From positions 1 to 53,246 of IMG/VR virus record IMGVR_UViG_3300043622_000001: 53,246 nt of DNA. One strand, given 5' to 3'. The notes beneath the pieces were generated by a model that worked only from the letters and a program-made list of their open reading frames with translations, had not been told where the DNA came from and did not search any database. Both the position numbers and the translations under genes were made by a program. The DNA is from a virus. The first letter of the stretch is position 1, and every line of letters starts with the position of its first letter. Positions 3,898-51,791 of this stretch are shown piece after piece.

Positions 3898-4341
3898 CTA
3901 CGGCCGCTCCGGCCAGAAGTGCTCGATGACGCCGTGCCCGATGAAGTACCCGGCCATGTTGCCGACCAGGACGATCGCGCCCGCGCTGGTCACCGTGCCG
4001 TGCAGGGTCGCGCCGTCGGGTCCGAGGGTCGGCTGGAACGTCACCCAGCCGAGGACCATCAGGGCGGTCAGCGCGGCGACGTCGATCGCGCTGTGGGCGT
4101 AGCGCACCACGAATGCACGGCGCCGGGACTCCAGGGGCTCCTCCTCCTCGATCAGCCGTTGCGTGCAGGGTCGGCAGAGCAGGGCTCCGGAGGCCACGTC
4201 ACGGAACGCGATCGGGCCGCCGCAGTGATCGCAGGGCTGGACCCACTCGCACGACTGGCACAGGGTGTCGTCCGGCAGCGCGGCGCACTCCGGGCACGGG
4301 CCCTCCTCGATCGGGTCGAGGTAGGTGTTCAGCGTCTCCAT
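3898..4341 (-). CDS. Cys-rich (zinc-ribbon-like) membrane protein (147 aa)
   Basis: ATG 4341 overlaps the translocase stop (ATGA). 'CPEC...CQSC...CDHC...CRPC' is followed by three hydrophobic segments. Confidence 0.65.
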   Translation of the reverse strand: METLNTYLDPIEEGPCPECAALPDDTLCQSCEWVQPCDHCGGPIAFRDVASGALLCRPCTQRLIEEEEPLESRRRAFVVRYAHSAIDVAALTALMVLGWVTFQPTLGPDGATLHGTVTSAGAIVLVGNMAGYFIGHGVIEHFWPERP

Positions 4342-6729: not shown

Positions 6730-6980
6730 CAGAAAGACCTCCTGTTGAACCGGGCGACGAGGGCACGGACGGCCCAGGCGCCCCAGATGGCGGCCATCCA
6801 GAGGACGGCGATGACGAGGACGATCGGGATGCCGATGCACTTCCCGAGGAAGTCGGCGACCCGCTGCTGCTCCGGCCGCAGGACCGGCAGGTCGATGACC
6901 TCGGCGATCCCGTCGAGGATCAGCACGTGGTCGTCGTCGCCCTCCTCGGGCAGCTGGCCGGCGTAGTGGACGCCGCGCAT
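6729..6980 (-). CDS. Small membrane protein (83 aa)
   Basis: ORF track. Acidic N-terminus and a C-terminal TM 'IGIPIVLVIAVLWMAAIWGAWAV'. Confidence 0.6.
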   Translation of the reverse strand: MRGVHYAGQLPEEGDDDHVLILDGIAEVIDLPVLRPEQQRVADFLGKCIGIPIVLVIAVLWMAAIWGAWAVRALVARFNRRSF

Positions 6981-7456
6981 CAGGCCACCAGGTAGGAGCC
7001 GAAGGCCCCGGAGTTGTAGGTGGACCAGGCGTTCCAGTTCCGCCCGTAGTTCGAGATCCGGGCCGCGGCGCGCGCGGCGCAGCCCAGCTCCATCGCGCAG
7101 GCCGGCGAGACGTCCGGGTGCGCGAGCACGTTGATCTGCCAGGGTCCGTAGGACTGCTCCGGCGCCTGGCCGGGGACGCAGTTCGTAGGGCAGAGGTGGA
7201 CGGCATCCGAACGCCCGCCCGACTCGGCGCGAGCGATGGCGGCTCCGACCGGCGCGGCGGCCGGCGGCACCCCGGCGGCCTCAAGCGCGCCGACCAGCTC
7301 GGCGTAGCTGTAGACGACGCCCGGCCCGGACGAGTACAGGCGGACGTCACCCTGGCTGCGGAGCGCGTTGCAGCCGATCTGCACGACCAGCAGGAACGCG
7401 ATCACCTTCCAGTGCCGGAGGCAGAAGCTGATGACGGCGAGGGAGTCGGCGATCAC
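6980..7456 (-). CDS. Membrane-anchored lytic transglycosylase (SLT/lysozyme-like)
   Basis: N-terminal TM, then 'AIARAESGGRSDAV' (catalytic E-S) and 'YGPWQINVL', 'WSTYNSGAY-like' motifs of SLT domains. GTG start overlaps the upstream stop. Confidence 0.75.
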   Translation of the reverse strand: MIADSLAVISFCLRHWKVIAFLLVVQIGCNALRSQGDVRLYSSGPGVVYSYAELVGALEAAGVPPAAAPVGAAIARAESGGRSDAVHLCPTNCVPGQAPEQSYGPWQINVLAHPDVSPACAMELGCAARAAARISNYGRNWNAWSTYNSGAFGSYLVA

Positions 7457-10693: not shown

Positions 10694-10938
10694 TGGAACC
10701 CCTCTGGGTCGACGTCGTGATCCTGTCCGGACTCCTGGCCGTGGCCGTGGCGCTCCTGGCTGTGCTGCTGAACCTGGCCGGTCGGCGGCTGCTGCGCTTG
10801 GAGCAGCGGCATGAACGCCTGGTCGCGATCGTGACGGCGCACCTCTCCGAGTGGCACTACGTCAGCTCGATGCCCGAGGCTCAGGCCGCCGACCAGCGCC
10901 AGATCGACCTCCTCGCCGCCTACAACCGCGAGGAGTAG
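10693..10938 (+). CDS. Small single-TM protein (81 aa), paralog of 9916..10080 with an internal insertion
   Basis: GTG 10693 overlaps the TAG of the upstream gene. 'EPLWVDVVILSGLLAVAVALLAVLLNLAGRRL...RQIDLLAAY'. Confidence 0.55.
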   Translation: MEPLWVDVVILSGLLAVAVALLAVLLNLAGRRLLRLEQRHERLVAIVTAHLSEWHYVSSMPEAQAADQRQIDLLAAYNREE

Positions 10939-11122
10939 GGCCTCGCTACCGAACGGACGCCCGGTGCCCGGCAGACGGATGCCACCCGCCTTCCTCCGGC
11001 GGCACAACGGCAGGCCGGTGCTCTTGAGGCGCTTGAGCTATGCCGGGCCGGGCGCCCTACGCCGACGCTGAGCCCGATCGTACGGGTTTGTACGGGTGCG
11101 TCCGACCCCGGAAAAGGAGAGA

Positions 11123-21717: not shown

Positions 21718-22217
21718 TCAGCCTCCGGCCCGGTTCATCGCGGCCTCGGCGTCGAGGAGCGCGAACAGCTGCGCGGGGGTCATTCGGAGGAACTCGGCAT
21801 GGGAGCGGCCGAAGCGGACGGTGGCGAGGTAGTAGTGCTGCGCCCAGGGGAGCCGCTCGTCTCCCCGTCGTCTTTTCCCTCGCGGCCCTTGCGCGGCGGG
21901 ATCGCCTCCTGCCACGCCCCGACGATGGCGGCGTGGTACTCGTTGAGGCGCTCCGGCTCGATCGGCGGCTGGAGACACTCCAGGACTACCTCCGGCGGCA
22001 TGCCGGTGTGGCTCAGGCCCGCCGTCAGGGCCACCCGGATCATCTTCAGCATCCGGCCTCGGTAGCCGTCGTCGAGCGCTTCGGTGAACCCATGGAGGCC
22101 GCCGAACTCCTCCTCGATCTGCTCCAGCGCGGGGTAGTCGAAGACGAGCCGTAGCCGCTCGCCGCCCAGCTCGACGTGGGCGCCGAGGGCCAGCACCCGC
22201 TGAGCCTCGGTGGCCAT
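21718..22217 (-). CDS. Tail assembly chaperone, -1 frameshift extension product (G-T-like)
   Basis: After G_GGA_AAA the -1 frame reads 'GKRRRGDERLPWAQHYYLATVRFGRSHAEFLRMTPAQLFALLDAEAAMNRAGG', matching ORF 21718..21978. It ends 1 nt before the tape measure start. Confidence 0.75.
21780..22217 (-). CDS. Tail assembly chaperone (G-like, 145 aa)
   Basis: ATG 22217 (ATGA overlap with the major tail gene). Contains the slippery heptamer near its 3' end. Confidence 0.8.
   Translation of the reverse strand: MATEAQRVLALGAHVELGGERLRLVFDYPALEQIEEEFGGLHGFTEALDDGYRGRMLKMIRVALTAGLSHTGMPPEVVLECLQPPIEPERLNEYHAAIVGAWQEAIPPRKGREGKDDGETSGSPGRSTTTSPPSASAAPMPSSSE
21873..21879 (-). promoter_or_regulatory. Programmed -1 ribosomal frameshift slippery heptamer G_GGA_AAA
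   Basis: Plus strand ttttccc at 21873-21879. Codon phase checked against both stop codons (21780 and 21718). Confidence 0.75.
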
Positions 22218-22789
22218 CAAGCCACAGCGACGAGCGTCTCGTTGGCCACGTACGTCAGCCAGGCGTTGGCCGGGTTCGAGGCCGGCGTCCCGATCGTCGG
22301 CACGGCCATGAAGTCGAAGGACTGGATGTCGTAGTCCTCCTCCTCCAGGCCCACGGGCATCGAGCCCGGCATCGCCTTCCAGAAGATGATGTGGACGTCG
22401 CCGCCGACGTAGTCGGTCTGCAGGGTCTGGGCCTCCACCTTGGCGAAGGCGGGCAGCGTGGACTGCGAGATGGCCATCGTGACCGTCTGGTTGGGCGTGG
22501 TGCCGGCGTCGGTGGCGAGGGCGTTCGTCAGGGCCGTCCAGATGTCGAAGCTGAAGCGCGCGTACTCCACGGTGCCGCTGATCTCGCTGAGCACGGAGTC
22601 CGCCGAGAGCAGCGTGTTGTCGCCGCGCAGGGTCTTGGTGTCCACCGAGAGCGTGGTCTTGAGGGACTTCACGCCCGGGACGTCCACGGCCGCGGCGTAG
22701 GTCGGCGCCGTGGCCGCCACGTCGGTGCTCAGCTTGTGGATCTTGGCGTCGTTCACGCCGTACTTCTTGGTGGTGTGGCCGAGTGCCAT
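22217..22789 (-). CDS. Major tail protein
   Basis: 190 aa. Position between the tail terminator and chaperones, and an abundant-protein-like composition. Confidence 0.7.
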   Translation of the reverse strand: MALGHTTKKYGVNDAKIHKLSTDVAATAPTYAAAVDVPGVKSLKTTLSVDTKTLRGDNTLLSADSVLSEISGTVEYARFSFDIWTALTNALATDAGTTPNQTVTMAISQSTLPAFAKVEAQTLQTDYVGGDVHIIFWKAMPGSMPVGLEEEDYDIQSFDFMAVPTIGTPASNPANAWLTYVANETLVAVA

Positions 22790-24274: not shown

Positions 24275-24624
24275 CAGGCTTCCTCCATGTCCAGCTCCTG
24301 GCAGTCCAGGACCAGCTCGCGGTGCCCCTCCTGGGAGTCCGTCACGGACTGGATGTCGAAGATCCGGGAGCCGTAGAGGAGCCGGTTCCGGGCGGTGATG
24401 CCGCGGCTCCGGTTCTCACCACGGAGCCTGACGCGATGGGTGAGCGTGGTCTGCGCCTGCGCCGCCAGGAGCGCCTCGCGACCCTGGAGCGGCTCGATCG
24501 CCGCCCAGAGCGTGGCCACGGTAGCCCAGGGGGTGCTCGTGCGGCCCTCGGCGTCCGTGCTGGACGTCTGGGCCTGGAGTTGGACTCGGCGGTTGAGGGC
24601 GCCGGCGCGCGGGACCGGGCTCAC
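24274..24624 (-). CDS. Head-tail adaptor (head closure) protein
   Basis: 116 aa. 'RRVQLQ...WATVATLWAAIEPLQGRE...THRVRLR...IFDIQSV' matches the Phage_H_T_join pattern. Confidence 0.75.
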   Translation of the reverse strand: MSPVPRAGALNRRVQLQAQTSSTDAEGRTSTPWATVATLWAAIEPLQGREALLAAQAQTTLTHRVRLRGENRSRGITARNRLLYGSRIFDIQSVTDSQEGHRELVLDCQELDMEEA

Positions 24625-25196
24625 GCCAGCAGTACCGGCGCGTAGTGCTCCATCAGGTCGCGGACGCCGAACTCGACCTCCTTGGAGATCGACCCTGTGA
24701 AGACGGCCTCCCGGTCGGCGTAGTAGTGGGCGACGAGCATGAGGAGGGCCTGTCGGATCTCGTCCGGGACCAGCTCAGGGGTCGTCCAGCCGGCGACGTA
24801 GGTCACCTTGACAGCACCCGGCAGCCAGGCCGTGGTAGGCCAGGCCACTCCGATCCCCGAAGCCAGCCGGGCCGGCTCGCTGTCCTTATCGACCACGTAG
24901 AACGCGGAGCTCCACGTCTGGCTGGCGCCGGCGGCGTCGAGGTAGACGACCGAGGTCACGGACTGGACCGGCGGGCGCAATTCGATCCAGCCGCAGGGGA
25001 ACCCGTCACGGATGAGCACGAGCGTCTGGGTCAGCAGCGCGAGGCCGTAGTGGCGCTCGATGTAGCGGCGCGAGGCCCGGATGGCGTTCTGGATCTGGGC
25101 GTCGGTGTCGCTGACGTCCACCGAGAGATGCGTCTTCGTCTCCGCCAAGCCCAACGGCTCGACGAGCGGACGGACGGACACCAGCGTCGAGGCCAT
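24621..25196 (-). CDS. Head-tail connector protein (gp6-like)
   Basis: 191 aa. N-terminal 'LGLAETKTHLSVDVSDTDAQIQNAIRASRRYIERHYGLALLTQT' is the classical gp6-like connector signature. Confidence 0.75.
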   Translation of the reverse strand: MASTLVSVRPLVEPLGLAETKTHLSVDVSDTDAQIQNAIRASRRYIERHYGLALLTQTLVLIRDGFPCGWIELRPPVQSVTSVVYLDAAGASQTWSSAFYVVDKDSEPARLASGIGVAWPTTAWLPGAVKVTYVAGWTTPELVPDEIRQALLMLVAHYYADREAVFTGSISKEVEFGVRDLMEHYAPVLLA

Positions 25197-26086
25197 CAGG
25201 CCGCCGCCCTCTCGCGCAGCGCCATCTCGATGCCCTCCTCCAGGGTGACCTTGGGCTGGTAGTAGCGGGAGAGGAGCGTCGTGTCGGCCACCCGGTAGCG
25301 GACGCCCGTCGGCTTGTCCGTCTCGTGGCGGAACTCCGGTTCGTAGCCCGCGGCCCGAGTCATCAGCCGAGCGAGTTCGTTGAAGCTGGTCGGCCGCCCA
25401 GCCCCTAGGTTCACGGGTCCGTCCACGGCCGCCTCGACGAGCGCCAGCGTGCCGGCCACCACGTCGCTCACGTGGATGAAGTCGCGGACCTGCTCGCCGT
25501 CGCCCCAGATCGTGAAGGGGTCCTCACAGCGCCGTGCCCGCTCCAGGAAGGCGCGGAAGGGGTAGGCCGGGTCCTGGTCGGCTCCGTAGCCACTGAAGGG
25601 CCTGACGACCGTGACGGGGACGCCGGCGTCCCGGGCGTGGGCCGCCAACAGCTCCCCGGTCAGCTTCGTCCAGCCGTAGAGGAAGTCGGGCGCCATCGGG
25701 TCGTCCAGCAGGATGTCCTCTTCGCACAAGCGATAGCCCGCCTCCCAGACGCCGTCCTGGAGGCAGACCGGGTAAGCCGCCGAGCTGCTGACGTAGACCA
25801 CCCGACCGGGCCGCGTCCGCGCCGCCCAGCCGAAGTACTCGGCGTCCAGGCTCAGGTCCACGGCCAGGCTGAGGGGCGAGCCCTCGATGCCCTGACGGCC
25901 GCCCACGACCGCGGCGCAGTGGATGGCGAGATCGACCTGGGTGCTCACGTGCCGGAAGTAGTCGCGGGCGTCCCAGGGCTCACGGTCGGCGATGTCCACC
26001 CGCCGGACCTCGTAGCCGCGCTGCTGGAGCGCGCGGACGAAGTGGCGACCGAGGAAACCGCTGGAGCCGGTGACCAGGGCCTTCAC
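25196..26086 (-). CDS. NAD-dependent sugar epimerase/dehydratase (extended SDR)
   Basis: GTG 26086 (GTGA overlap) within ORF 25196..26290. Rossmann 'LVTGSSGFLGRH', 'SSSAAY', catalytic 'YGWTK'. Confidence 0.9.
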   Translation of the reverse strand: MKALVTGSSGFLGRHFVRALQQRGYEVRRVDIADREPWDARDYFRHVSTQVDLAIHCAAVVGGRQGIEGSPLSLAVDLSLDAEYFGWAARTRPGRVVYVSSSAAYPVCLQDGVWEAGYRLCEEDILLDDPMAPDFLYGWTKLTGELLAAHARDAGVPVTVVRPFSGYGADQDPAYPFRAFLERARRCEDPFTIWGDGEQVRDFIHVSDVVAGTLALVEAAVDGPVNLGAGRPTSFNELARLMTRAAGYEPEFRHETDKPTGVRYRVADTTLLSRYYQPKVTLEEGIEMALRERAAA

Positions 26087-26646
26087 CGGCTCCCCCAGAG
26101 CTGGAACGAGTAGATCCCGCCGGCCGGGTGTTCGAGCACCTTGTGCAGCTCCGGCGTCCAGCCCGTCGCCTCCAGCATCCGGCCGACCTCCTCGCAGTCC
26201 CAACTCCAGATGTGCTCCGGATTGCCGGCGCCGTTCTCGCCGTCGGGAGTGCTGAGCACCAGCGCCTTCGCTCGCCGTCGGATCTCGCACAGCACCATCT
26301 CCGGGTCGTCGAGGTGCTCGAGCGTCTCCGAGAGGACCCAGAGGTCCACCGCGTCAGGCGCGATGCACTGGATCGTCTCTTCGATACGGCCCTGGTACTC
26401 GTAGCCGGCCGCGTAGTCGCCGAGGATGGCGTGCGCCGCGTGGGTGGCCTGCAGGCTCCGGGCGATGGCCGCGTCGCCGCAGCTCAGGTCCGCCACCGTC
26501 CCGCCCTTGGGCAGGAGCGCCTCGGCCATCCTGATCGTCTGGTCCACGCGGATGATGTGGTCCGCCCAGCGCGTGTGGTCGTGCGGGCGCGGGTAGAGGA
26601 GCAGCATCTCCATCTCGTTCGGCGCTGGACGCAGGCGGACTCGCAT
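26083..26646 (-). CDS. Class I SAM-dependent methyltransferase 1
   Basis: ATG 26646 (ATGA overlap) within ORF 26083..26991. Motif I 'VADLSCGDAAIA', 'LSETLEHLDDPE'. Confidence 0.8.
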   Translation of the reverse strand: MRVRLRPAPNEMEMLLLYPRPHDHTRWADHIIRVDQTIRMAEALLPKGGTVADLSCGDAAIARSLQATHAAHAILGDYAAGYEYQGRIEETIQCIAPDAVDLWVLSETLEHLDDPEMVLCEIRRRAKALVLSTPDGENGAGNPEHIWSWDCEEVGRMLEATGWTPELHKVLEHPAGGIYSFQLWGSR

Positions 26647-26945
26647 CAGACCGGGCCTCGCTGTCGGTCCCAGTCCGCACCGCATGTCGTGCAGCTCAGA
26701 TTGCGATCCGACCACAAGCGGAAGCTCATCAGGGATCGGCAGTACCGACACCGCATGGTGACCCACGAGTCGGGCGAGGTGTAGATGTTCGGCGGAAAGG
26801 CTCTCTGGCACTCGGCCAACTCGTCCCGGCCGATCGGCGGGTAATGGCCGGTGTACGCTGGCGGCGCTGGTCGCGCAGGCCGCGGCGGAATCGGTGCCGG
26901 GTTTACCAGGCTCGTTCCGTGCTTCCGCCGGAGCCTCACGCGCAT
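26646..26945 (-). CDS. Zinc-ribbon protein (99 aa)
   Basis: ATG 26945 within shadow ORF 26646..27518. 'MRCRYCRSLMSFRLWSDRNLSCTTCGADWD' (CxxC...CxxC). Confidence 0.55.
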   Translation of the reverse strand: MRVRLRRKHGTSLVNPAPIPPRPARPAPPAYTGHYPPIGRDELAECQRAFPPNIYTSPDSWVTMRCRYCRSLMSFRLWSDRNLSCTTCGADWDRQRGPV

Positions 26946-27523
26946 ACGGCGGTTGCCACCTGGAACCAGTCCACTCGCTCGTGCCTGACAACCCGGTATC
27001 CGGCCTGCTCCAGCAGCTCCCGGTAGCCTTCCTCGTCGAAGGCCCAGAGGTGGTGCTCGTAGTGCTGCTGGTCCGTCTCGGTCGCCGGCGAGGAGGCCAC
27101 GATCACCCGGCAGTGCTCGGCCACCTGGCGGACGAAGGCGTGAGGGTCCACGAGGTGCTCCAGGACCTCGGTGCAGACCGCCAGCTCCGCCCACTCGATG
27201 GGCACGTCCATGAAGTCGGCGTAGCGGACGGCGACCCCACGCTCGTAGGTTGCCGCCGCGACGTTGGCCGGGCAGAGATCGTATCCCCAGCGCGGGATGT
27301 CGCGCGGCAGCAGCGAGAGCAGGCCACCGTCGCCGGCTCCGAGGTCTACGACGGAGTGGATGCCCAGCTCCTCTCGTGCCCGTAGAACGTGGTTGGCGGC
27401 GGCGAGGAGACGGTTCCGCTGCGGGCCGAACTGCTCCAGGTGCGGCGCTCGCTCGCGTGGTCGGTGCCACTCGCGCGTTACGCACTCGGGGACCGTGCCC
27501 TCGGGGAAGAGGCGCCACTGCAT
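26936..27523 (-). CDS. Class I SAM-dependent methyltransferase 2
   Basis: 195 aa. Motif I 'VVDLGAGDGGLL', 'CTEVLEHLVDP'. Confidence 0.85.
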   Translation of the reverse strand: MQWRLFPEGTVPECVTREWHRPRERAPHLEQFGPQRNRLLAAANHVLRAREELGIHSVVDLGAGDGGLLSLLPRDIPRWGYDLCPANVAAATYERGVAVRYADFMDVPIEWAELAVCTEVLEHLVDPHAFVRQVAEHCRVIVASSPATETDQQHYEHHLWAFDEEGYRELLEQAGYRVVRHERVDWFQVATAVCA

Positions 27524-28266
27524 CAGGCCGACGCCTTCGCCGCGATCAGCTCCCGAAGCTTAGCCAGGGCCGCCGGGCTCTCCTCGCGGACCCAGCGCAG
27601 GAAGGTGGCGTGGTCGCGGGCGTACATCGCCTGGCTGTTCACCTCCCGGTAGCCGGCGTCCCACTCGGCGCTCCTGGCCAGCGGGTGGAGGTGCTCGATC
27701 ACGACGTCGTCGAGGTAGCGGATGCAGCCGAGCGCCTGACCCAGCCCGAGCCAGAAGTTGTCCATGAAGAGGTGGATCAGGCCGGGCGGGACCATGTAGC
27801 CGAGCGTCCGGATGATGTCGGAGGTCATCACGACCGCGGTGGGCAGGGCTTCGCGCTGGAAGAGGTCGTTGCCGTAGACGATGCCGGTGCCCATCTCCCG
27901 GAGGGCAGCCACCATCCGCTCGTCCCAGCCGGGGGTTCGCGGGCGGTGGTCGTCGCCCATGAAGCCGATGGCGAAGTACTCCGAGGCGTAGGTGCCTGAG
28001 TGTCTGTTCAGGGTTGGCCCGAGACGTTCGCGTGGTTCGTGGACCAGCGCTTGCGCTCGCCCCGACCCGCTCGTGGGCGGGAACTTCCGATACGCCTCGG
28101 CATAGCGCTCCAGGTCAGGGTCGTCCAGATCGGTGACCACCAGGAGGGCCGAATCCCCGGCCACGGTAGCCTTCCACGACTCCAGCAGCTGCGCCACGTT
28201 CTCTGGGCGCCCGCGCGACGGCACAATCACCAGGAGGTCAGACACGACGTCGCATCCGGAGCCCAC
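27523..28266 (-). CDS. GT-A fold glycosyltransferase (family-2-like)
   Basis: 'LLVIVPSRGRPENV' (N-terminal nucleotide-sugar fold), 'FMGDDH' (DxD-like), 'IEHLHP'. Start is GTG 28266 or GTG 28245. Confidence 0.75.
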   Translation of the reverse strand: MGSGCDVVSDLLVIVPSRGRPENVAQLLESWKATVAGDSALLVVTDLDDPDLERYAEAYRKFPPTSGSGRAQALVHEPRERLGPTLNRHSGTYASEYFAIGFMGDDHRPRTPGWDERMVAALREMGTGIVYGNDLFQREALPTAVVMTSDIIRTLGYMVPPGLIHLFMDNFWLGLGQALGCIRYLDDVVIEHLHPLARSAEWDAGYREVNSQAMYARDHATFLRWVREESPAALAKLRELIAAKASA

Positions 28267-28296
28267 GGAGGTAGCCGAGGGGATTCTTGGTCTGCG

Positions 28297-29121
28297 TCAC
28301 CGGGCAGCCTCCTGGGTCGGAGCCTCCTCGGGCTCGGGCTCCACCGGCGGCGGGTCCACGGCGCGCTCGCGCCAGTAGGTGCGTTCCCCCACCCACGTCT
28401 CCTTGTGGTGGCTGGTGGGGACGCCCGTGTGCACGAACACGGGGATGTCGAGCGCTCCCGCCCGCAGGCAGAAGCTGAGATCCTCGCTGACCATCTGGCC
28501 GGTGCTGGGGTTGGGCGCGCGGTTGTACCAGACCGGCCCGAAGCGCTCCAGCATCCGCACCAGCACCGAGCGATGGATGAGAACGCAGGCGGCGCCCGTG
28601 CCGTGGCACTTGACCAGGGCGTCGGGCGGGTAGTCCCAGACCACGGCGAAGCCCTGCTGGCCCTGGTGCTGCGTCCACCGGTAGATGGTGGGCACGGCGC
28701 CGGTGTGGTGGCCGCCCATGCCGTCCAGGTCCAGCTCCCGCTGCCCGAAGCAGAGCGCGCCGACGATGGGCCGCTCCTGGGAATGGGCGGCGCCGAAGAG
28801 ACGGTCCACCGTCTCCGGGGCGAAGCCCATGTCGGTGTCCACCCACCAGAGCCAATCGCCGCGGTCCTCCTGGAGGAACTCGGCGACCGCCTTGTTCCGG
28901 CTCTCGATCAGGCCGTCGGTGCCGTACTTGATCGAGATGAAGCCGCCGGCCAGCACCCGACCGTGATTGGCCATGTCCCAGCCGACGAGCTGGATCATCG
29001 AGTGGTACCACGAGTAGGACACCTTGCTGTCGTGCACGTAGGCGACGACGACGGCCTGCGTCCGGTCGGGCTGCTGGCCCGGCGCGGACGGCGCCCAGGC
29101 TTCGGGGATGGCTTCACTCAT
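28297..29121 (-). CDS. Glycosyltransferase (GT2-like), paralog A
   Basis: ATG 29121 (ATGA overlap). 'WWVDTDMGF' (DxD), 'GTGAACVLIHR', 'EDLSFCLR'. Clearly paralogous to 29118..29825. Confidence 0.8.
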   Translation of the reverse strand: MSEAIPEAWAPSAPGQQPDRTQAVVVAYVHDSKVSYSWYHSMIQLVGWDMANHGRVLAGGFISIKYGTDGLIESRNKAVAEFLQEDRGDWLWWVDTDMGFAPETVDRLFGAAHSQERPIVGALCFGQRELDLDGMGGHHTGAVPTIYRWTQHQGQQGFAVVWDYPPDALVKCHGTGAACVLIHRSVLVRMLERFGPVWYNRAPNPSTGQMVSEDLSFCLRAGALDIPVFVHTGVPTSHHKETWVGERTYWRERAVDPPPVEPEPEEAPTQEAAR

Positions 29122-29825
29122 GGGGCGGTCGTGACCTCGGGGGGATCGCTCAGCCACACGTTCTTCATGTGGTTGGTCCTGATCCCGGTGTGGACGTGGA
29201 CGGGGATGCCGGCGACGGCGCAGCGGAGGCAAAACGAGAGATCCTCACCGACCACGCCGCCCGTGGTCGGGTTGGGCACCGGGTCGTACCAGGCCGAGCC
29301 CGGCTGGGTGGCCGAGATGCACTCGAACACCCGGCGATGGACCAGGATGCAGGCCGACCCCGTGCCGGCCACGCGGATCAGCTCGTCGGGAGGGTAGGAC
29401 TCGTGGTTGACGAAGCCCTTGAACTCCTCGTCGCTGTGCCACTGGTAGATGGTCGGGATGGACTCCGACCGCCACCCGTTGAGGCCGTCGTCCTCGGGCA
29501 GCTTCTGAGCGAAGCAGAGGGCGCCCACGACCGGCCTCTCGATGGGGTCGGCGGCGGCCAGCAGCCGATCGACGGTGTCAGGCGTGAAGCCCATGTCGGT
29601 GTCCGTCCAGAGCATCCAGTCGATGCCCTCGACGCCGAGGAAGCGGCGGACGCCCTCGTTGCGCGCGGCCGGTACGCCCTGGAAGCCGCAGCGGATGAGG
29701 AGGTCGCCGGCCACCCGACCTTCGTGCTGAGCATCGTGGCGGATCAGGCCGAGCACGCTCCGGTGCCAGCAATGGGCGACCTCGTGGCCGTGGACGTAGG
29801 CGAGGATGACTCGGCCGTCAGCCAC
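29118..29825 (-). CDS. Glycosyltransferase (GT2-like), paralog B
   Basis: GTG 29825 chosen within ORF 29118..29888. 'LWTDTDMGF', 'GTGSACILVHR', 'EDLSFCLR'. Confidence 0.8.
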   Translation of the reverse strand: MADGRVILAYVHGHEVAHCWHRSVLGLIRHDAQHEGRVAGDLLIRCGFQGVPAARNEGVRRFLGVEGIDWMLWTDTDMGFTPDTVDRLLAAADPIERPVVGALCFAQKLPEDDGLNGWRSESIPTIYQWHSDEEFKGFVNHESYPPDELIRVAGTGSACILVHRRVFECISATQPGSAWYDPVPNPTTGGVVGEDLSFCLRCAVAGIPVHVHTGIRTNHMKNVWLSDPPEVTTAP

Positions 29826-30075
29826 GCGGGCGGACGTTGCGCCTCTCGCCGGGGCCGGCGGTGGCCTGCTCGACGGTACCCTCAGCATCCTCCGGGGGAG
29901 GCACGCTGTAGCTCATCCCGTAGCGCGCATCGGAACTGAAGAGGTCAGGCCGCGCGACCACGACCGGGTCCGTGGTCGGCCAGTGCTCGCCCTTCCTGAT
30001 CGTCACCGAGTGGCCTGCGGCCATGGCCACCGAGCATGTCGCGGTGGCGTACACGACCTGGAGGGATCCGCTCAC
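29818..30075 (-). CDS. Hypothetical head-module protein (85 aa)
   Basis: GTG 30075 (GTGA overlap), C-terminal part of shadow ORF 29818..31410. 'VSGSLQVVYATATCSVAMAAGHSVTIRKGEHWPTTDPVVV'. Confidence 0.5.
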   Translation of the reverse strand: MSGSLQVVYATATCSVAMAAGHSVTIRKGEHWPTTDPVVVARPDLFSSDARYGMSYSVPPPEDAEGTVEQATAGPGERRNVRPRG

Positions 30076-30365
30076 CCTTCGACCTCGTAGCCCAGCTCCC
30101 TCAGCTCCTTGCGGATGTTCTTCCGGTCCTCCTCGGCAGCCTGGCGGTCGGTGTCGGCCAGAGTGGCGGCCTGGTCGTGGCTCTCCAGCGTCAGCCGGTG
30201 GGCCTCCAGGCGAGCGAGGAGTTGGTGCACACGGGGGTCGCTGGACTCTCCGGGCGAAGGGCGGACGGGGCCGGTCCTGATCACGCTGCGGCTCTCGCTG
30301 GAGGTACCGCTGGTGGCCTCGGGCTGCTTCGCCTCGGACTTGGGCTCGGACTTCTGCTCGGGCAT
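30072..30365 (-). CDS. Hypothetical head-module protein (97 aa), charged/coiled
   Basis: ORF track. Follows the capsid gene after a hairpin. Confidence 0.6.
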   Translation of the reverse strand: MPEQKSEPKSEAKQPEATSGTSSESRSVIRTGPVRPSPGESSDPRVHQLLARLEAHRLTLESHDQAATLADTDRQAAEEDRKNIRKELRELGYEVEG

Positions 30366-30446: not shown

Positions 30447-31925
30447 CTAGGCGTTCACAAGTAGGCGGAACGCTAGGTCGTTGACGCTGTTCCCGCCGAT
30501 GCGGGCGTAGGCGAACCAGCCCCGCTGGCCGGTCGGCAGGTTGTTCGTGACGTCGAACATCATCGGGATCAGCTCCACGCTCATCCCGCCGCGGCGCGCC
30601 ACGACGTAGTTGCTGAAGTCGCCGACCACGGCCAGGCCGGTCGTGGCGGCGGTGCCGGTCGTCGTGGAAGGCATGTACGGCGACTCGTACACGGGGCTGT
30701 TGAAGAGGGCGTCCGTCCAGCCCTCGGGCAGGCCCACGGTGAATCCGTGGTACACGTTCGCGGTGCCCAGCTGGCGGATGGCGTTGTTGACGCCCACGCT
30801 CATCATCCAGGCCGCGTTGCGCCGGAAGCGCTGCGGGATCGCCTGCCAGACCTTGTAGGGGTCGGGCGAGCCCAGCGCGCCGCCGGTGGTCAGCGTGACC
30901 CGGACGTTGGTGTTCGCCGAGAGCGCCGTCAGGATGCCTCGGGGCTCGCCGGTGCCGCTGCCCTGGGTGAACTTGTCGACCAGGAGCTCGTCGTAGCCCT
31001 CGGCCAGCAGCCGGCTCATCTCCTGGGCGAAGCCGGGGTAGTCCTGACCCAGCTCGATGCTGTAGGGGATGAACCCGCGGGCCATGTAGACCGTCACGGT
31101 GGGCTGGGCCAGGGTCGGCGAGTCGTCGCTGACCGCCGCCGCCTCGGAGTCGAAGGACCAGCTCACGCCGGCCGAGGAGACGCCCTTCCAGACGTTGGTG
31201 TTGACGTCGACGCTCCTCGCGATCTGAAGGAACGGGTTCCCCGAGCCCTGGGCGGTCAGGATGATGCTGGGGTCGATGAACACCGGAATTCCGAACCCGC
31301 CCGCGGTGGTCGTGCCCTCGGACATGGCCCGGTACTCCTGGAAGGCGCGGACGGCGTCCGTCTCCTCCTGGGAGAGGAAGGGGTGGGGCTGGGTCACCAG
31401 CTTCATCCACGCCTCGCGGTACTCGGTCGTCTCGGTGACCAGGACCCGGCGGGCGATGTCGCCGTTGCGGCTGACCAGGCGTTCGACCTGGTCGCGCTGG
31501 TCCGCCTTCAGGTGGGCGGTGGCGTGGCGGTCGTCGAGCCGACGCAGCGCCCGGTCGCGGGCCTCGGCGGTGGTCAGCCGGCGGACATCACTGAAGGGGT
31601 CGTTGGGGTCCACGCCCAGGCTCCGCAGCGCCACGTTGACGCGCTCGGGGCGGCGCCGCAGCACCTCCTCGACCTTGCGGTGCTCCTCCAGCCTGCCCAG
31701 CACCTGCTGGCGGAGGCTGATCAGGGAGCGGAAGGCGGTGTCCTCGTCGGCCTCCAGCTCGCGGATGCCTCCCCGCTCGTCCATGTGCAGGGTCTGGATG
31801 TGGGCGTCGAGCACGGGGACCATCTGCTCCAGCTCGAGCGGGGTCTTGCCGCGGAGGTCGTTGATGAGGTTGGGGTAGGCGACGGCGGCGTCGATCGGTG
31901 TCGTGGGAGCGTTCTCTTCAGGCAC
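30447..31925 (-). CDS. Major capsid protein (HK97 fold) with a long N-terminal delta/scaffold-like domain
   Basis: 492 aa, directly after the prohead protease. Coiled N-terminal ~190 aa, then a Phage_capsid-like body ('GGFGIPVFIDPSIIL...', 'GRGWFAYARIGG'). Confidence 0.9.
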   Translation of the reverse strand: MPEENAPTTPIDAAVAYPNLINDLRGKTPLELEQMVPVLDAHIQTLHMDERGGIRELEADEDTAFRSLISLRQQVLGRLEEHRKVEEVLRRRPERVNVALRSLGVDPNDPFSDVRRLTTAEARDRALRRLDDRHATAHLKADQRDQVERLVSRNGDIARRVLVTETTEYREAWMKLVTQPHPFLSQEETDAVRAFQEYRAMSEGTTTAGGFGIPVFIDPSIILTAQGSGNPFLQIARSVDVNTNVWKGVSSAGVSWSFDSEAAAVSDDSPTLAQPTVTVYMARGFIPYSIELGQDYPGFAQEMSRLLAEGYDELLVDKFTQGSGTGEPRGILTALSANTNVRVTLTTGGALGSPDPYKVWQAIPQRFRRNAAWMMSVGVNNAIRQLGTANVYHGFTVGLPEGWTDALFNSPVYESPYMPSTTTGTAATTGLAVVGDFSNYVVARRGGMSVELIPMMFDVTNNLPTGQRGWFAYARIGGNSVNDLAFRLLVNA

Positions 31926-38836: not shown

Positions 38837-39088
38837 ATGACGATCGCTACCGCCAAGAAGCCCTGGGCGGACCCGCAGCCGGGCGACGTTCTGACGACCG
38901 CCGATGGGCGCGCCTACACGGTCACCGGCCGCGAGCGCATCTTTCGTGGTCAGGAGCGCGTCCAGTACCGCTACGTCAATGCCGTCGGCCATCGGCGTCG
39001 GGGCAATGCGGTGCTGGAGTCGACCTGGCTCGGGATCATTCGCCGCGAGCTGGCCAAGGGCGGCTCGTACGTCCACCGCCAGTCTTGA
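38837..39088 (+). CDS. Hypothetical protein (83 aa) co-transcribed with recombinase 2
   Basis: ORF track. GGAAGGAG Shine-Dalgarno. The stop overlaps the TTG start of the recombinase (TTGA). Confidence 0.6.
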   Translation: MTIATAKKPWADPQPGDVLTTADGRAYTVTGRERIFRGQERVQYRYVNAVGHRRRGNAVLESTWLGIIRRELAKGGSYVHRQS

Positions 39089-40038
39089 CCGACCTCACCC
39101 CCATCTCGCTCGCCACCCACCTCGTCCCCTGGGTCGACGCCACGACCCGCTTCCTACGAACGCTGGACAGCGACAACACCCGGCGGGCCTACGGCCGCTG
39201 GCTCACCCATGCCGGGGTCGTGCTGGGCGAGCCGCCGCTGGCCAGCCTCGACAGCGCCATGCTGGGCGACTACCGGGCTGCGGTCATGAGCGACGACGAG
39301 GGCCTCGGTCCTGCGTCGCAGTCCCAGGCGGTCGCCGCGCTGCGCAGCTTCGTGCGCTGGGTCCGCGGCTTGGACGGCGGCCGGCATCTGCCGCTGGTAA
39401 CGCTGGAGACCATGGAGGTCGCCCTGAAGATGCCGCGGGCCGAGGTCCGCCGGCCCTACTCGGTGCTGTCCGACAAGGAGGCGGCCCGGATGATCGAGCG
39501 CACCGGCACGACGCGCGACCGGGCGCTGCTCAGCGTCATGCTGGGCGCCGGCCTGCGGGTGTCGGAGGTCGTCAAGCTCGCGGTCGCCGATGTGCTCGCA
39601 GACCAGGAGGGCGGCGCCGTGATCTGGGTCCGCCAGGGCAAGGGCCGCAAGGACCGCTCGGTCCCGATCCAGCCTGACGTGCTGGAGGCCGTCCTGGCCT
39701 ACCTGGCGGCGACCGGCCGTCGACTGAGCGGCTCCGGGGTGCTGTTCCGGTCCTACGACCACGTCGAGCACCGCCGGGTCCGGGCCGAAGGCATGACCGA
39801 GAGCGCCGTATGGCAAGCCGTACGGAAGGCCGTCTCGGTCGCCCACATCGTCGGCAAGGCGGTCAGTCCGCACACGCTGCGCCACACCTTCGCCATCCGG
39901 TTCCTGCGGGCTCACGGCAGCGCAGCGGCGCTCCAGAAGGTGCTCGGCCACGCCTCGCTCACCACGACCCAGCGCTACCTCGACCACTTCGAGCTCGCCG
40001 AGCTGCGGCGGATGATGCCGCGGCTGCCGAAGGGCTGA
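39085..40038 (+). CDS. Tyrosine recombinase (XerC/D-like), recombinase 2
   Basis: 317 aa. 'GAGLRVSEV' (Arg I), 'HTLRHTFA' (H-x-x-R), 'LGHASLTTTQRYLDH' (His/Tyr). SAM-like N-terminal core-binding domain. Confidence 0.9.
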   Translation: MTDLTPISLATHLVPWVDATTRFLRTLDSDNTRRAYGRWLTHAGVVLGEPPLASLDSAMLGDYRAAVMSDDEGLGPASQSQAVAALRSFVRWVRGLDGGRHLPLVTLETMEVALKMPRAEVRRPYSVLSDKEAARMIERTGTTRDRALLSVMLGAGLRVSEVVKLAVADVLADQEGGAVIWVRQGKGRKDRSVPIQPDVLEAVLAYLAATGRRLSGSGVLFRSYDHVEHRRVRAEGMTESAVWQAVRKAVSVAHIVGKAVSPHTLRHTFAIRFLRAHGSAAALQKVLGHASLTTTQRYLDHFELAELRRMMPRLPKG

Positions 40039-44891: not shown

Positions 44892-45658
44892 GACGCCGAC
44901 CCCACCGCCGCCACCGCGGCCCGAGCCTCGCGGACGACGTCGAGCGCGCCGCACGTGCACTCCTCGCCGTAGCTGCGGTGGAACGCCATCGGGCAGCCGG
45001 CGCGCTCGGAGTGGTTGACCAGCGCGAGCATCCGCTCGACGAGGTCGTCGAGGCGGCGCACCTCATCGTCACGTGAGGCGCGTCCCAGCCCAAACAACGC
45101 GTCTCCGATCCGCCGGTCGACCTCCTTGTCGGGCTCGCTCAGCATGTGGTACGGCACGAGCCACGAGGGCTTGGGATTGGGCTGCTCCTCGGCCCAGGCG
45201 ATCCAGACGGCGCGCACCAGCGCCCCTCGATCGTCCCGGGCCGTGGGCGATGCGGCCTCCATCGCCGCCTCCAGCGGTCCGAGCTTGTTGAGGTAGCCGT
45301 CCATGTCGCGAACCGCGGCCTCGTAGTCCTCGCGAAGCTGGTCGATCTCGCCCAGCAGGAACTCGATGTCCGCCGGGGCGTTGGCGATCAGCTCAGCGTC
45401 GGGGTGGACGACGTCGATCACGTCGTCCCGGTAGGGCACCTCGCGCACGGCGAACTTGCGGATGGACTCGAGCAGGCCGCCGGCGTTCACGCGGAAGGAG
45501 GTCCAGTGGAACCCGGCCCGCTCGGGTGCCAGCACGACGTCCCCGAAGCGCCCGCCGCGCAGCTCGATGCCCTGGTTCAGGTATCCACGCCAGCGCCACG
45601 GCCCCGGCGTTGCCGCCGACAGCCGCGCCTTGATCTGATCGATCCGGTCCTCAGCCAC
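44888..45658 (-). CDS. Hypothetical protein (256 aa), Ead/Ea22-like N-terminus
   Basis: ORF track. 'RLSAATPGPWRWRG' is a motif common in early phage proteins. Confidence 0.6.
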   Translation of the reverse strand: MAEDRIDQIKARLSAATPGPWRWRGYLNQGIELRGGRFGDVVLAPERAGFHWTSFRVNAGGLLESIRKFAVREVPYRDDVIDVVHPDAELIANAPADIEFLLGEIDQLREDYEAAVRDMDGYLNKLGPLEAAMEAASPTARDDRGALVRAVWIAWAEEQPNPKPSWLVPYHMLSEPDKEVDRRIGDALFGLGRASRDDEVRRLDDLVERMLALVNHSERAGCPMAFHRSYGEECTCGALDVVREARAAVAAVGSAS

Positions 45659-46514
45659 GGTCGTTGTCTCCGGGCCCGTCCTCGGCCCCTCCCCCGCTCG
45701 TCGCGCCCGCCTGCTCCGCGATGGAGCCCTGCACGACGTTCTCCGGCCGCAGGCCGCTCCCGGGGGTCCAGATCGACGCGCGCTCGTCGCCGGCCAGGGC
45801 CGCGTTCCACTCGATCGACGCGGGCATGTACTTCTTGCCCTGGAGCACGCAGGTCTTCTCGGCCATCTCGTCGAAGTTGGTCCGCCACGGCGAGGACGCG
45901 TCCTTCTGCTGGTAGGAGCGGCTGTAGCGCTGGGCGTGCTCCTCGACGTCCTCGCGGGTCATGAACTCGATGTGGCGCCCGCCGTTGACGTAGCGAACGA
46001 CCGCGTAGTACGCGTAGGCGGGACCGCGGCGGCCCCGCGTCGGCCGCTTGTGCCCGACGACGTTGGCGCCCTGGTCGTAGAAGAACTCGTCGCCCTCGCA
46101 CACGCTGGCGGCGTTGATGTCTTGGAGCAGCGCCGATCGCCACGCGAGCTGGACGACGCCGGGGTAGCCGAGCACGAAGGTGGCCACGCCCTTGAAGGGC
46201 AGGATCCAGGCGTGCCCGAGGGCGGGTCCGGGCTCCAGCTTGACCGTGGCGCACTGCAGGAGCGCGCCGGCCATGCTCTGCCAGGAGCACTCGGCGAGCT
46301 TGGGGATGCGCTGCGTCTCCGTCAGGCCGGCCTGAAGGAAGCGGCGGACCATGTCCTTGTCGTTGAGGGTCCGCATCATCTCGCCGCGGAAGGCTTCGTA
46401 CTGGAACAGCTGCATGACGTTGGCCGGCCGCGCGCCGGGCTTCGCCATCTGGGTGCCGGCCTGCTGCGCGGCGTCCGCCTGGCGCAGGCGGTCCACCAGT
46501 TCACTCCCGGCCAT
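45651..46514 (-). CDS. recT: RecT-family single-strand annealing protein
   Basis: 287 aa. 'LLQCATVKLEPG...HAWILPF...VLGYPGVVQLA...YYAVVRYVNGG...FMTREDVE...SPWRTNFDEMAEKT'. Paired with the upstream exonuclease. Confidence 0.9.
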   Translation of the reverse strand: MAGSELVDRLRQADAAQQAGTQMAKPGARPANVMQLFQYEAFRGEMMRTLNDKDMVRRFLQAGLTETQRIPKLAECSWQSMAGALLQCATVKLEPGPALGHAWILPFKGVATFVLGYPGVVQLAWRSALLQDINAASVCEGDEFFYDQGANVVGHKRPTRGRRGPAYAYYAVVRYVNGGRHIEFMTREDVEEHAQRYSRSYQQKDASSPWRTNFDEMAEKTCVLQGKKYMPASIEWNAALAGDERASIWTPGSGLRPENVVQGSIAEQAGATSGGGAEDGPGDNDRG

Positions 46515-47424
46515 CTTCGATACCTCCCACCACGGTGAGCTTTCGGTACTCCGTGGCCTTGACGGTGTAGCCCTTGCGCTGGATCAGCGGCCAGCGCACG
46601 ACCGGACGCCCGCCGACGGTCCCGACCTCGGCATCGCCCATGAGGGCCATCAGCTTGTTGGCGGCCGTCTGCCTGCGGTCCTTGGCCTCTCGCTCGGCCA
46701 TGGATGCGCGCAGGAAGTCGGCGATGAGCGCGGTGGCCGTGGCCGGCAGCTCCGTCGTGTCGCGTGACGGACGGGCGAACGCAGCCCGCAGCGCCTCGGC
46801 GGTCTTGGTCGAGCCGTCCACGTCGGGTGGCTCGCCGCCGAGCACGTTCTTGCGCCAGAAGCGCTCCTCCATCTCCATCAGCTCGGAGATGGCGCCCTCG
46901 TCGCGGTCAATCTGGAACCAGAGGAAGGAGTCGCCGCGCAGCAGCACGGCCACGTAGGCGCGCTCCGCCTCGTCCACGGCGATCTGGTGCTGGGCCTGGA
47001 TGACGATGTGCAGCGGCACCCCGTCCGTCCACTGCCCGTCCAGGCCGTTCGACGTCTTGACCTCGACCACGCCGAAGGGCGGGGCCTGATGACCGTCAGA
47101 GTCCTGATAGGCCCGACCGTCGAGGGTGGCCCGCATCCACTCGTAGCCCGGACGCACGATGGCGATCTGGCGGTCGCGGACCTCGATGCCGGTGTCCTCG
47201 GTGAACCACTCGATGACGACGGGCTCCAGCAGCCGGCCCGCGCGCCGCGCCCGGTCCTCCGGGCGCTCCAGCGGGATCAGGCCCCGCTTGTCCGCCCAGA
47301 CGGTCCAGGGGTTGCCGAAGGGCGACAGGCCGACCACGGCGGCGGCGTCCGAGCCGCCGATGCCCTCGCGCCTCCACTCCAGCCAGTCGTGGCGGTTGCT
47401 CTGGACGACGTGCAGGACGCTCAT
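46501..47424 (-). CDS. YqaJ/lambda-Exo-like recombination exonuclease
   Basis: ATG 47424 (ATGA overlap) within ORF 46501..47709. 'WLEWRREGIGGSDAAAVVGLSPFGNPWTVWADKRG', 'VVEVKTS', 'IQAQHQIAV'. Confidence 0.85.
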   Translation of the reverse strand: MSVLHVVQSNRHDWLEWRREGIGGSDAAAVVGLSPFGNPWTVWADKRGLIPLERPEDRARRAGRLLEPVVIEWFTEDTGIEVRDRQIAIVRPGYEWMRATLDGRAYQDSDGHQAPPFGVVEVKTSNGLDGQWTDGVPLHIVIQAQHQIAVDEAERAYVAVLLRGDSFLWFQIDRDEGAISELMEMEERFWRKNVLGGEPPDVDGSTKTAEALRAAFARPSRDTTELPATATALIADFLRASMAEREAKDRRQTAANKLMALMGDAEVGTVGGRPVVRWPLIQRKGYTVKATEYRKLTVVGGIEDGRE

Positions 47425-50991: not shown

Positions 50992-51666
50992 TCAGGCCCT
51001 GGCCTCCGCCGTGTTCAGGACGCGACGGAGCGCGGCGCCGATGAACTCGGTGTAGGCCGGCGGGATGGCCTGGCGGGCCCCGCGCGCGGTGATCCACTCG
51101 ACACCGATCGCGGCCCGCCGCTCGGCCTCCGTGTATCGCGGCGGCATGCGCCGGCCAGCGGCCACACGTCCAGCCACGCGGTGGCCGATCAGCTCACCGG
51201 AGGCGACCCGGCCGCGACAGGAGCAGGGCGGCAGGAGCACGAGGGGCGGCTGGGGATGCAGCTCGAACAGTCGGTGCCGGCGCACCCGGAGCCCGAACAT
51301 CGTTCCGCACAGCAACACGGGGTTGACCAGCGGCGCACCGGGGACGTTCTCGATGACGAAGGGCAGGCCCGCTGCCAAGAGCTGAGGCCGCAGGGGCGTG
51401 ACCAGGTCGATGTGCGCGGCCTGCGTCGCCCGGTGGAGCGACGTGAAGAGCAGGCACGGCGGCGACGCGTGAATCGCGTCGAACGGGCCCAGCTCGCGCA
51501 GGAGCGCCGGCAGCCCCACCTCCATGATGTCCGCCTGGCAGAAGTGGTCCCCGGCGTACCGCGGCTGCGGCAGGATGTCCACGCCCGTGACGTGGAACCC
51601 GGCGAGTTGGTAGCCGCGAGCGGCCCCGCCGGCGGCGCTGAAGAGGTCCAGGAGCCGAGGCTGCAT
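50992..51666 (-). CDS. Compact DNA (cytosine-5)-methyltransferase
   Basis: ATG 51666 (ATGA overlap; the ORF track extends to GTG 51669). Motif I 'LDLFSAAGG', motif IV 'HASPPC', motif VI 'FVIENV', motif X-like 'QAIPPAYTEFIG'. Only 224 aa. Confidence 0.85.
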   Translation of the reverse strand: MQPRLLDLFSAAGGAARGYQLAGFHVTGVDILPQPRYAGDHFCQADIMEVGLPALLRELGPFDAIHASPPCLLFTSLHRATQAAHIDLVTPLRPQLLAAGLPFVIENVPGAPLVNPVLLCGTMFGLRVRRHRLFELHPQPPLVLLPPCSCRGRVASGELIGHRVAGRVAAGRRMPPRYTEAERRAAIGVEWITARGARQAIPPAYTEFIGAALRRVLNTAEARA

Positions 51667-51791
51667 CACCCCTTCCCCGCCTCCCGCGCGGCCGCCATCA
51701 GCAGCACGACCCCGCTGAGCGCGACCGTGCCGCCGGCGACGAAGGCCATCGCGAGGTAGGTCAGCAGCAGCCAGGCGGGGAGGTGGATCAC
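51666..51791 (-). CDS. Tiny membrane protein (41 aa)
   Basis: GTG 51791 (GTGA). 'VIHLPAWLLLTYLAMAFVAGGTVALSGVVLLMAAA'. Confidence 0.4.
   Translation of the reverse strand: MIHLPAWLLLTYLAMAFVAGGTVALSGVVLLMAAAREAGKG

Follow-up and report, generated by a model that had tools for sequence, protein, structure and literature searches.

To our knowledge, the only phage particles shown to be glycosylated are those of a few mycobacteriophages, in which the modification changes their recognition by antibodies. Freeman and co-workers reportedly placed the glycans of such particles at the C-termini of capsid and tail-tube subunits. Here we analyze a cassette of sugar-modifying genes in the viral genome IMGVR_UViG_3300043622_000001 from IMG/VR; the whole stretch of 53,246 nucleotides (nt) was examined and is referred to as the window. 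The cassette lies downstream of the major capsid protein (MCP) gene. It contains three glycosyltransferase genes, designated GT1, GT2 and GT-A ("GT2-type" is used below for the enzyme class of the GT-A gene and "GT-A fold" for the protein fold), two genes for class I S-adenosylmethionine (SAM) methyltransferases (MT1 and MT2) and one for an extended short-chain dehydrogenase/reductase (SDR). An initial annotation, made from the nucleotide letters, proposed that these genes decorate the structural proteins of the phage itself. We found that a transferase of the GT1/GT2 family accompanies the capsid gene throughout an uncultured lineage, and that the capsids of this lineage carry a conserved hydroxyl-rich loop, which is a candidate acceptor.

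In mycobacteriophage Corndog, the genes for a methyltransferase (gp35) and three glycosyltransferases (gp36-38) precede the capsid gene within the head operon. Passages of three papers (PMC11600133, PMC12363180 and PMC11652166, citing Freeman et al. 2023, Cell Host Microbe 31:1216) report that the Corndog glycosyltransferases modify the capsid and the tail tube. The window cassette resembles the Che8/Corndog/Myrna system in its phage-encoded glycosyltransferases and in the Actinomycetota hosts; a structural-protein target, which is proposed here, is described for that system in the same passages. The cassette also shares with Corndog a predicted O-methyltransferase and the embedding of the genes in the head-morphogenesis operon by the capsid gene, and by analogy the Corndog layout is a precedent for the genomic logic of the cassette. 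In contrast to Che8 and Corndog, the candidate site in the window is an internal loop, the transferase is a core gene across the capsid lineage, and the gene set is extended by a nucleotide-sugar SDR and another methyltransferase. The cassette may work like the mycobacteriophage system, yet it is not a member of that system.

To determine how widely the cassette accompanies the capsid gene, IMG/VR was scanned with an alignment of the MCP (30447-31925; this gene, the cassette and the other head genes described below are all on the minus strand). The scan returned 80 loci (L039-L118) with an MCP 61-72% identical to that of the window, a clade without a cultured representative. Forty-eight of these loci continue for 4 kb or more past the MCP gene, and in all 48 the MCP gene is followed by p85 and then by a gene of the GT1/GT2 family. 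The transferase starts at a median of 814 nt past the MCP stop, and p85 is always located between the two. p85 (29818-30075) is a small conserved head-module open reading frame (ORF) that matches phrog_9538, "head-tail connector" (E = 2.7e-5), and it has weak homologues in transferase-less relatives as well. The small ORF that directly follows the MCP gene in the window, p97 (30072-30365), is variable or missing among relatives.

The genes that follow the transferase differ from locus to locus. The transferase stands alone in 22 of the 48 loci; it is joined by GT-A in eight, by GT-A, MT2 and SDR in six, and by SDR in four. Three loci (L045, L073 and L091) have both transferases and thereby the complete six genes of the window, and the remaining five have other arrangements. 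Methyltransferases occur among the 48 loci only alongside GT-A and SDR. The single-copy transferases of the relatives are closer to GT2 than to GT1, and GT1 orthologues are confined to loci with two tandem copies, which suggests that GT2 is the ancestral core gene of the head module and that GT1 is an extra, added paralogue. The initial annotation described the whole seven-gene cassette as inserted into the operon. That description suits the set of GT-A, methyltransferase and SDR, which appears to be a mobile accessory module, and does not suit the core GT2 gene, which is probably ancestral to the head module, so that a single insertion does not account for the locus.

The GT1/GT2 family is sizeable, with 839 matches in a set of 5.8 billion proteins and, in a set of 1.84 billion representative proteins, 653 clusters at E ≤ 1e-30 and 2,481 clusters at E ≤ 1e-10. 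The same layout of MCP and transferase genes was found in prophages of Streptomyces, Kribbella, Nonomuraea, Frankia, Nocardioides, Micromonosporaceae and Microthrixaceae, and in a metagenome-assembled genome of Chloroflexota. In Bacillota prophages, which encode distant members of the family, the transferase gene directly follows a PF05065 capsid gene of a different type. Two loci of the distant-family survey have the transferase between the terminase and portal genes, and one GT1-family locus (L022) is non-phage, beside ThiF and SDR genes. In capsid relatives at about 40% MCP identity (43 IMG/VR loci, the Gordonia phage RavenCo17 and prophiGD02-2), the corresponding slot contains no transferase, methyltransferase or SDR.

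Several natural fusions join the cassette enzymes. The 671-residue protein P0382 combines a GT2-family transferase, GT-A and MT1 in the gene order of the window, P0172 is a fusion of GT-A and MT1, and P0335 is a fusion of GT-A and a transferase. In P0253 and P0258, the core transferase is linked to a rhamnosyl O-methyltransferase/CmcI domain, and further fusions involve FkbM or LicD domains. Such fusions tie the enzymes into one predicted pathway. Together with the occurrence of methyltransferases only beside GT-A and SDR, they favour sugar over protein as the methylated substrate and point to a glycan with two or more residues.

The stretch that had been named as a candidate acceptor, PSTTTGTAATTG (MCP residues 419-430, positions 30636-30671), belongs to a 13-residue Thr/Ser-rich loop, MPSTTTGTAATTG (residues 418-430, positions 30636-30674), which is flanked by two nearly invariant motifs (VYESPYMP ... 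VVGDF). The fraction of Ser and Thr in this loop is 0.45 in 65 distinct transferase-linked loops, compared with 0.19 in 27 distinct transferase-less loops (Mann-Whitney p = 5e-12). Over the entire protein, the fraction is 0.14-0.15 in either group of capsids, and an approximately threefold enrichment in the loop is observed only in the transferase-linked capsids. Ser or Thr occupies MCP positions 422, 423, 425 and 426 in 94, 86, 98 and 87%, respectively, of 85 distinct close-clade sequences. Residue identity in the loop (0.50) is lower than that of the whole MCP (0.70); Ser and Thr interchange and the loop is more variable. The hydroxyls appear to be conserved rather than the exact residues, which is the pattern expected of a clustered O-glycosylation site. 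The comparison upholds the earlier choice of acceptor as a candidate, in that the stretch is part of a conserved, Ser/Thr-enriched loop apparently specific to transferase-bearing capsids. As a guide to the position of the loop, the Douge capsid was considered and rejected, being a different capsid. Two Bacillota prophage capsids (L034:6384-8033 and L035:8157-9890) have a C-terminal Big_2 Ig-like domain, which could provide an alternative display or acceptor surface.

GT1 (29118-29825; 235 amino acids) and GT2 (28297-29121; 274 amino acids) encode predicted GT-A-fold glycosyltransferases, which share 45% identity (E = 4e-69) and are paralogues. Both match phrog_34859 (E = 1.7e-20 and 1.8e-15, respectively). 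DTD and ED motifs (DTDMGF and EDLSFC) are present in the pair, at 29586-29603 (DTD) and 29229-29246 (EDLSFC) in GT1, and an alignment of 61 homologues shows no variation at D75, D77, E194 and D195. The AlphaFold2 model of GT1, built from a 61-sequence alignment, has a pLDDT of 92.7. In a Foldseek search, its top PDB matches, Mnn9, LH3, the ppGalNAc-transferases and ColGalT1 (TM-scores of 0.55-0.62, E-values from 2e-8 to 1e-6), are dominated by protein-glycosylating GT-A enzymes, and its best viral fold matches are GT-A proteins of uncultured Caudovirales (TM-scores up to 0.81). GT1 resembles the ppGalNAc-transferases (GT27), LH3/ColGalT1 and Mnn9 in fold and in the DxD-type site for the metal and nucleotide-sugar. 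In contrast to these enzymes, with which it shares 11-17% identity, GT1 is without lectin or accessory domains. A tblastn search of GT1 against 50,697 phage records returned only cyanomyovirus or uncultured hypothetical proteins at 29% identity or less, and the function is therefore not informed by any cultured relative. A megablast search of the cassette against the same records returned zero matches.

GT-A (27523-28266; 247 amino acids) encodes a GT2-type glycosyltransferase with the motifs VIVPSRGRPE and GDDH (27946-27957), and it matches phrog_14945 (E = 2e-49). Residues D105-D106-H107 are invariant in its 61-sequence alignment, from which a model with a pLDDT of 94.0 was obtained. The Foldseek matches of this model include the hyaluronan synthase of Chlorella virus, AvpGT, the WrtF fucosyltransferase, SpsA, TarS/TarP, RmlT and polysaccharide synthases, and GT-A is probably a glycan-extending enzyme. 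At E ≤ 1e-3, GT1 and GT-A have 168 and 408 PDB matches, respectively, with GT-A-fold enzymes throughout the best 50 of each. Neither protein reaches the gathering threshold of PF00535 (23.3 bits; 22.5 bits for GT-A and 17.0 bits for GT1), and GT2 has no match to this family. Sequence searches of GT1, GT-A, MT1 and MT2 against PDB chains returned nothing usable. GT1, GT2 and GT-A represent divergent glycosyltransferase families.

SDR (25196-26086; 296 amino acids) matches PF01370 (E = 4.7e-33, 115 bits with a cut-off of 20.9) and phrog_540 (E = 1.6e-51). It displays the features of an extended SDR, namely an N-terminal GxxGxxG motif (TGSSGFLG, residues 6-13), SSS at residues 100-102, and Y137 and K141 within YGWTK (residues 137-141). 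Full-length PDB matches were obtained to 7ll6/8du0 (E of about 2e-20) and 2c5e, the best being GDP-L-fucose synthase and GDP-mannose 3,5-epimerase. SDR is similar to Fcl/GFS and GDP-mannose 3,5-epimerase (GME) in this full-length match and in the GxxGxxG and S...YxxxK motifs. It differs from Fcl in scoring 79.5 bits against NCBIfam NF047922, for which the equivalog cut-off is 500, in having Ala at the position of the catalytic Cys (alignment with 7ll6), and in being encoded without a partner 4,6-dehydratase. By sequence it is a predicted nucleoside diphosphate-sugar epimerase/reductase, nearest to Fcl/GME. The cassette encodes no 4,6-dehydratase or nucleotidyltransferase partner, and the sugar precursors must therefore come from the host.

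MT1 (26936-27523; 195 amino acids, motif DLGAGDGG) matches PF13489 (E = 4e-13, 49.8 bits) and is probably a sugar O-methyltransferase. MT2 (26083-26646; 187 amino acids, motif DLSCGD) is related to MT1 (E = 1.5e-7) and reaches 20.9 bits against PF13489, which is under the cut-off of 27; MT2 orthologues with 43-53% identity occur in related cassettes. The enzyme classes first assigned to the cassette agree with the Pfam, PHROGs, NCBIfam, PDB and fold matches.

We lean towards the interpretation that this late-expressed cassette builds a glycan and glycosylates the phage's own virion, with the MCP as the leading acceptor, and hold it with modest confidence. In the scheme that we propose, GT2 would act in the cytoplasm during head assembly, where it would move a sugar from a host nucleotide-sugar to hydroxyls of a virion protein; the leading candidate site is the conserved Thr/Ser cluster at MCP residues ~421-428. 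The paralogue GT1 would put on a second sugar or act at a second site. GT-A would lengthen the glycan, drawing on a sugar from the Fcl/GME-like SDR that may be a hexose in 6-deoxy or epimerised form, and MT1 and MT2 would O-methylate the sugars. The acceptor, the identities of the sugars, the order of the steps and glycosylation itself are what we infer from gene content, predicted folds and comparative genomics.

A wider proposal, which we hold only tentatively and with some doubt, is that capsids are obligatorily glycosylated across a large uncultured lineage of soil actinophages and, in parallel, in Bacillota prophages. A dedicated GT-A-fold enzyme, with its gene right behind that of the capsid, would act on a conserved, mucin-like Thr cluster of every subunit, with swappable GT2-type, O-methyltransferase and SDR modules, and the whole would be evolutionarily unrelated to the mycobacteriophage system. 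Capsid glycosylation would then belong to the basic structure of these phages and would not be a sporadic addition, and glycan-coated capsids would be common and ancestral in soil phages. This would raise the question of what such a coat does outside an animal host, for which particle stability, stickiness, protease resistance and host recognition come into consideration. It would also provide a compact glyco-engineering toolkit for phage heads, consisting of one core transferase and modular tailoring enzymes. The locus draws attention to an unrelated enzyme family with a fixed place beside the capsid gene in uncultured phages and Actinomycetota prophages, which number in the hundreds, and again in Bacillota; it also supplies a specific, conserved candidate acceptor loop.

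A number of observations weigh against glycosylation of the virion. The interpretation is genomic in its basis, glycosylation of the virions being a prediction. No homology to the mycobacteriophage virion glycosyltransferases was detected: BLASTP comparison of the window enzymes with Che8 gp108-110 and Corndog gp35-38 gave nothing below E = 0.09, hhalign comparison of the 61-sequence profiles with each Che8 and Corndog protein gave probabilities below 7%, and Che8 and Corndog are absent from the top 50 BFVD fold matches. Ser and Thr are also missing at the C-termini, the window MCP ending in ...FRLLVNA and the tail tube in ...TLVAVA, in contrast to Corndog gp41 (...PLVGS) and gp49 (...IKGDS), both of which end in Ser. 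The original proposal of virion glycosylation is upheld in part and sharpened; the capsid linkage is stronger than was known when it was made and the Ser/Thr loop adds to it, whereas the homology to Che8 and Corndog and the logic of a C-terminal acceptor are absent.

The loop and the folds have limits of their own. The contrast in loop composition represents essentially one evolutionary split and was calculated without phylogenetic correction. The MCP patch contains 7 Ser/Thr in 12 residues, and several other proteins of the genome reach 7-8; because similar densities are reached by several window proteins, only the comparative loop test is informative. In the Bacillota capsids that carry the transferase family, the loop is not Ser/Thr-rich. 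The candidate loop at residues 418-430 was placed from sequence, and the modelled TM-scores of about 0.6 indicate the GT-A fold only and say nothing on acceptor specificity. In addition, the trio of GT-A, methyltransferase and SDR is also found at a distance from capsid genes, for example in a Lentzea prophage (L162) and a further contig (L163), and the GT-A homologues of Stanwilliamsviridae sit in a replication module.

The Lentzea prophage, in which the trio lies beside lysogeny genes, is consistent with modification of a host cell-envelope glycopolymer, either as late receptor masking that spares progeny from debris or as lysogenic conversion or superinfection exclusion. Methylated deoxyhexoses are typical of actinobacterial envelopes, and the fold neighbours of GT-A include the wall-teichoic-acid glycosyltransferases TarS/TarP, RmlT and polysaccharide synthases, which makes an envelope substrate plausible for GT-A. 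As an account of the cassette we nevertheless consider it unlikely. The core transferase stays beside the capsid gene in Actinomycetota, Chloroflexota and Bacillota despite their very different envelopes, which better fits a phage-internal target; no transmembrane segment was predicted in any cassette protein, which leaves these proteins without a membrane anchor, and the genes are located in the late head operon, outside the lysogeny module. A soluble target other than the virion, such as a host protein, a discarded assembly factor (the scaffold-like N-terminal domain of the MCP, or p97) or a small molecule, appears distinctly improbable. The MCP is a candidate acceptor only, the N-terminus of p97 is Ser/Thr-rich, AvpGT, a small-molecule (nucleoside) glycosyltransferase, is among the top fold matches of GT-A, and the member of the GT1 family beside ThiF and SDR genes shows that the family also occurs in a non-phage setting. 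However, the lineage-wide neighbour of the transferase is the capsid gene, p97 being inconstant in relatives, and a soluble target would not account for the cluster of conserved hydroxyls within the mature domain of the MCP.

Glycosylation of a hypermodified base in the phage DNA to evade restriction would place the enzymes in a different pathway. The closest cultured-phage homologue of GT-A is Blueeyedbeauty gp77 (43% identity, hhalign E = 8e-62), and the closest such relatives in general (~41-43% identity) lie in a replication/nucleotide-metabolism module of large Streptomyces and Arthrobacter phages. In Blueeyedbeauty, gp76-78 (L004:7375-9081) comprise the GT-A homologue, a second glycosyltransferase and a cytidylyltransferase-like gene, and the same type of module is present in 130-kb Streptomyces and 190-kb Arthrobacter phages; its target could be DNA or a wall polymer. 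Unlike the window cassette, gp76-78 are without capsid linkage, methyltransferase or SDR. The initial annotation held that a virion target would be refuted if the closest glycosyltransferase homologues act on DNA or on host envelope polymers. For GT-A alone, the genomic context of its relatives leaves some probability of this. The GT1/GT2 family is linked to the capsid at every informative locus (48/48), and the cassette itself is in the head operon and not in the early/replication region. Classical T4 DNA glucosyltransferases have the GT-B fold, unlike the GT-A fold predicted for GT1 and GT-A. Among the 20 non-structural proteins that were Pfam-scanned, with some small ORFs outside the scan, no hydroxymethylase or base-hypermodification domain was detected, the scan showing only RecT/YqaJ, integrases, GNAT and an FtsK-like protein. 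A role in DNA decoration is thus very improbable. By term search, a paper on glycosylated 5-hydroxycytosine DNA contains no mention of Streptomyces, actinobacteria or GT-A. Least probable of all is that the cassette, in whole or in part, is a decaying passenger without current function. Such decay could be read from an orphan ORF with a zinc-ribbon pattern between MT1 and MT2, from the score of MT2 under the Pfam cut-off and from the Ala at the Fcl catalytic Cys position of SDR. Against this, the six enzyme genes are intact with a GC content at third codon positions (GC3) of 0.88-0.93, as in neighbouring genes, their catalytic motifs are conserved, and the six-gene architecture is kept in L045, L073 and L091; decay would leave the conserved hydroxyl loop and the intact, conserved active sites unexplained.

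In transcription order, the genes are MCP, p97, p85, GT1, GT2, GT-A, MT1, zinc-ribbon ORF, MT2, SDR and gp6-like connector (24621-25196), the last forming the distal flank of the cassette. All the motifs and boundaries quoted for the original seven-gene cassette are present, and six of the genes are well supported; the seventh, the zinc-ribbon ORF (26646-26939; CxxC-x17-CxxC), is without support and its coding status is doubtful. Coupling by ATGA/GTGA overlaps, which had been described for the whole cassette, applies to the 4-nt overlaps of GT1/GT2 and MT2/SDR, and to MT1/zinc-ribbon ORF if the latter starts at the GTG at 26939. At the other junctions, the overlaps are 1 nt (GT-A/MT1, zinc-ribbon ORF/MT2 and SDR/connector) or 8 nt (p85 stop and GT1 start), and a 30-nt gap separates GT2 from GT-A. 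The coding strand from 21.5 to 36.5 kb has no predicted sigma-70-like promoter or intrinsic terminator, and the GC content of the cassette is the same as that of its flanks. The co-oriented, tightly packed arrangement within the late head operon agrees with the predicted co-transcription with the head genes.

Within its interval, the zinc-ribbon ORF alone combines an open frame with a raised GC3 (0.79); its GC content is lower at first than at second codon positions, which is atypical, and it was skipped by the public gene call. No homologue was found among 5.8 billion proteins, no DNA or protein match was found in any related locus, and a search for small CxxC ORFs in related cassettes gave nothing convincing. 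In L045, which like L073 and L091 has the architecture of the window, MT1 and MT2 adjoin without space for this ORF. Its start, MRVRLRR, resembles that of MT2, MRVRLRP, and the MT2 frame is also open over 26646-26945. The orphan may be a small duplication or insertion instead of a gene.

The first 127 nt of the window (positions 1-127) are an exact copy of positions 53120-53246, which indicates an assembler overlap and a circular or terminally redundant genome of 53,119 bp. Its GC content is approximately 70%, and the public Logan assembly contains an identical contig. The minus strand encodes TerL, the portal, an S78 protease, an HK97-type capsid protein, connectors, the tail tube and the tape measure; other genes encode two tyrosine integrases, RecT/YqaJ, GNAT and an FtsK-like protein. 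The combination of head and tail genes with integrases therefore identifies a temperate siphophage of actinobacterial type, and the virus is a soil phage. Its MCP is about 42% identical to those of the nearest cultured relatives, Gordonia phages and M. abscessus prophages; the best match among the 50,697 phage records has 43% identity, and a homologue has been solved (PDB 9lw6, E = 1e-68).

The two tyrosine integrase genes are far apart, at 1696-2658 and 39085-40038 on the plus strand (PF00589, E = 3e-26 and 5e-31, respectively). On the minus strand, genes for a GNAT acetyltransferase (2772-3392), a 664-residue FtsK/SpoIIIE-like protein (4341-6335) and an SLT_3 lysozyme-like protein (6980-7456) are clustered; the FtsK-like gene is unusual for a siphophage and is reminiscent of the transfer genes of actinomycete conjugative elements. 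A single tRNA gene, tRNA-Tyr (anticodon GTA; 10864-10954, minus strand), lies amid small early-region ORFs. A recombination pair at 45651-47424 (minus strand) consists of RecT (PF03837, E = 4e-39) and a YqaJ exonuclease (PF09588, E = 1e-23). The ORF at 50992-51669 (minus strand) opens with DLFSAAGG, which is similar to motif I of C5 DNA methyltransferases, and has no Pfam match at E ≤ 1e-3. Among the structural proteins, the densest Ser/Thr window, TSGSPGRSTTTS, is located at residues 121-132 of the 146 residues of a putative tail assembly chaperone (21780-22220, minus strand), where a frameshift extension would be expected.

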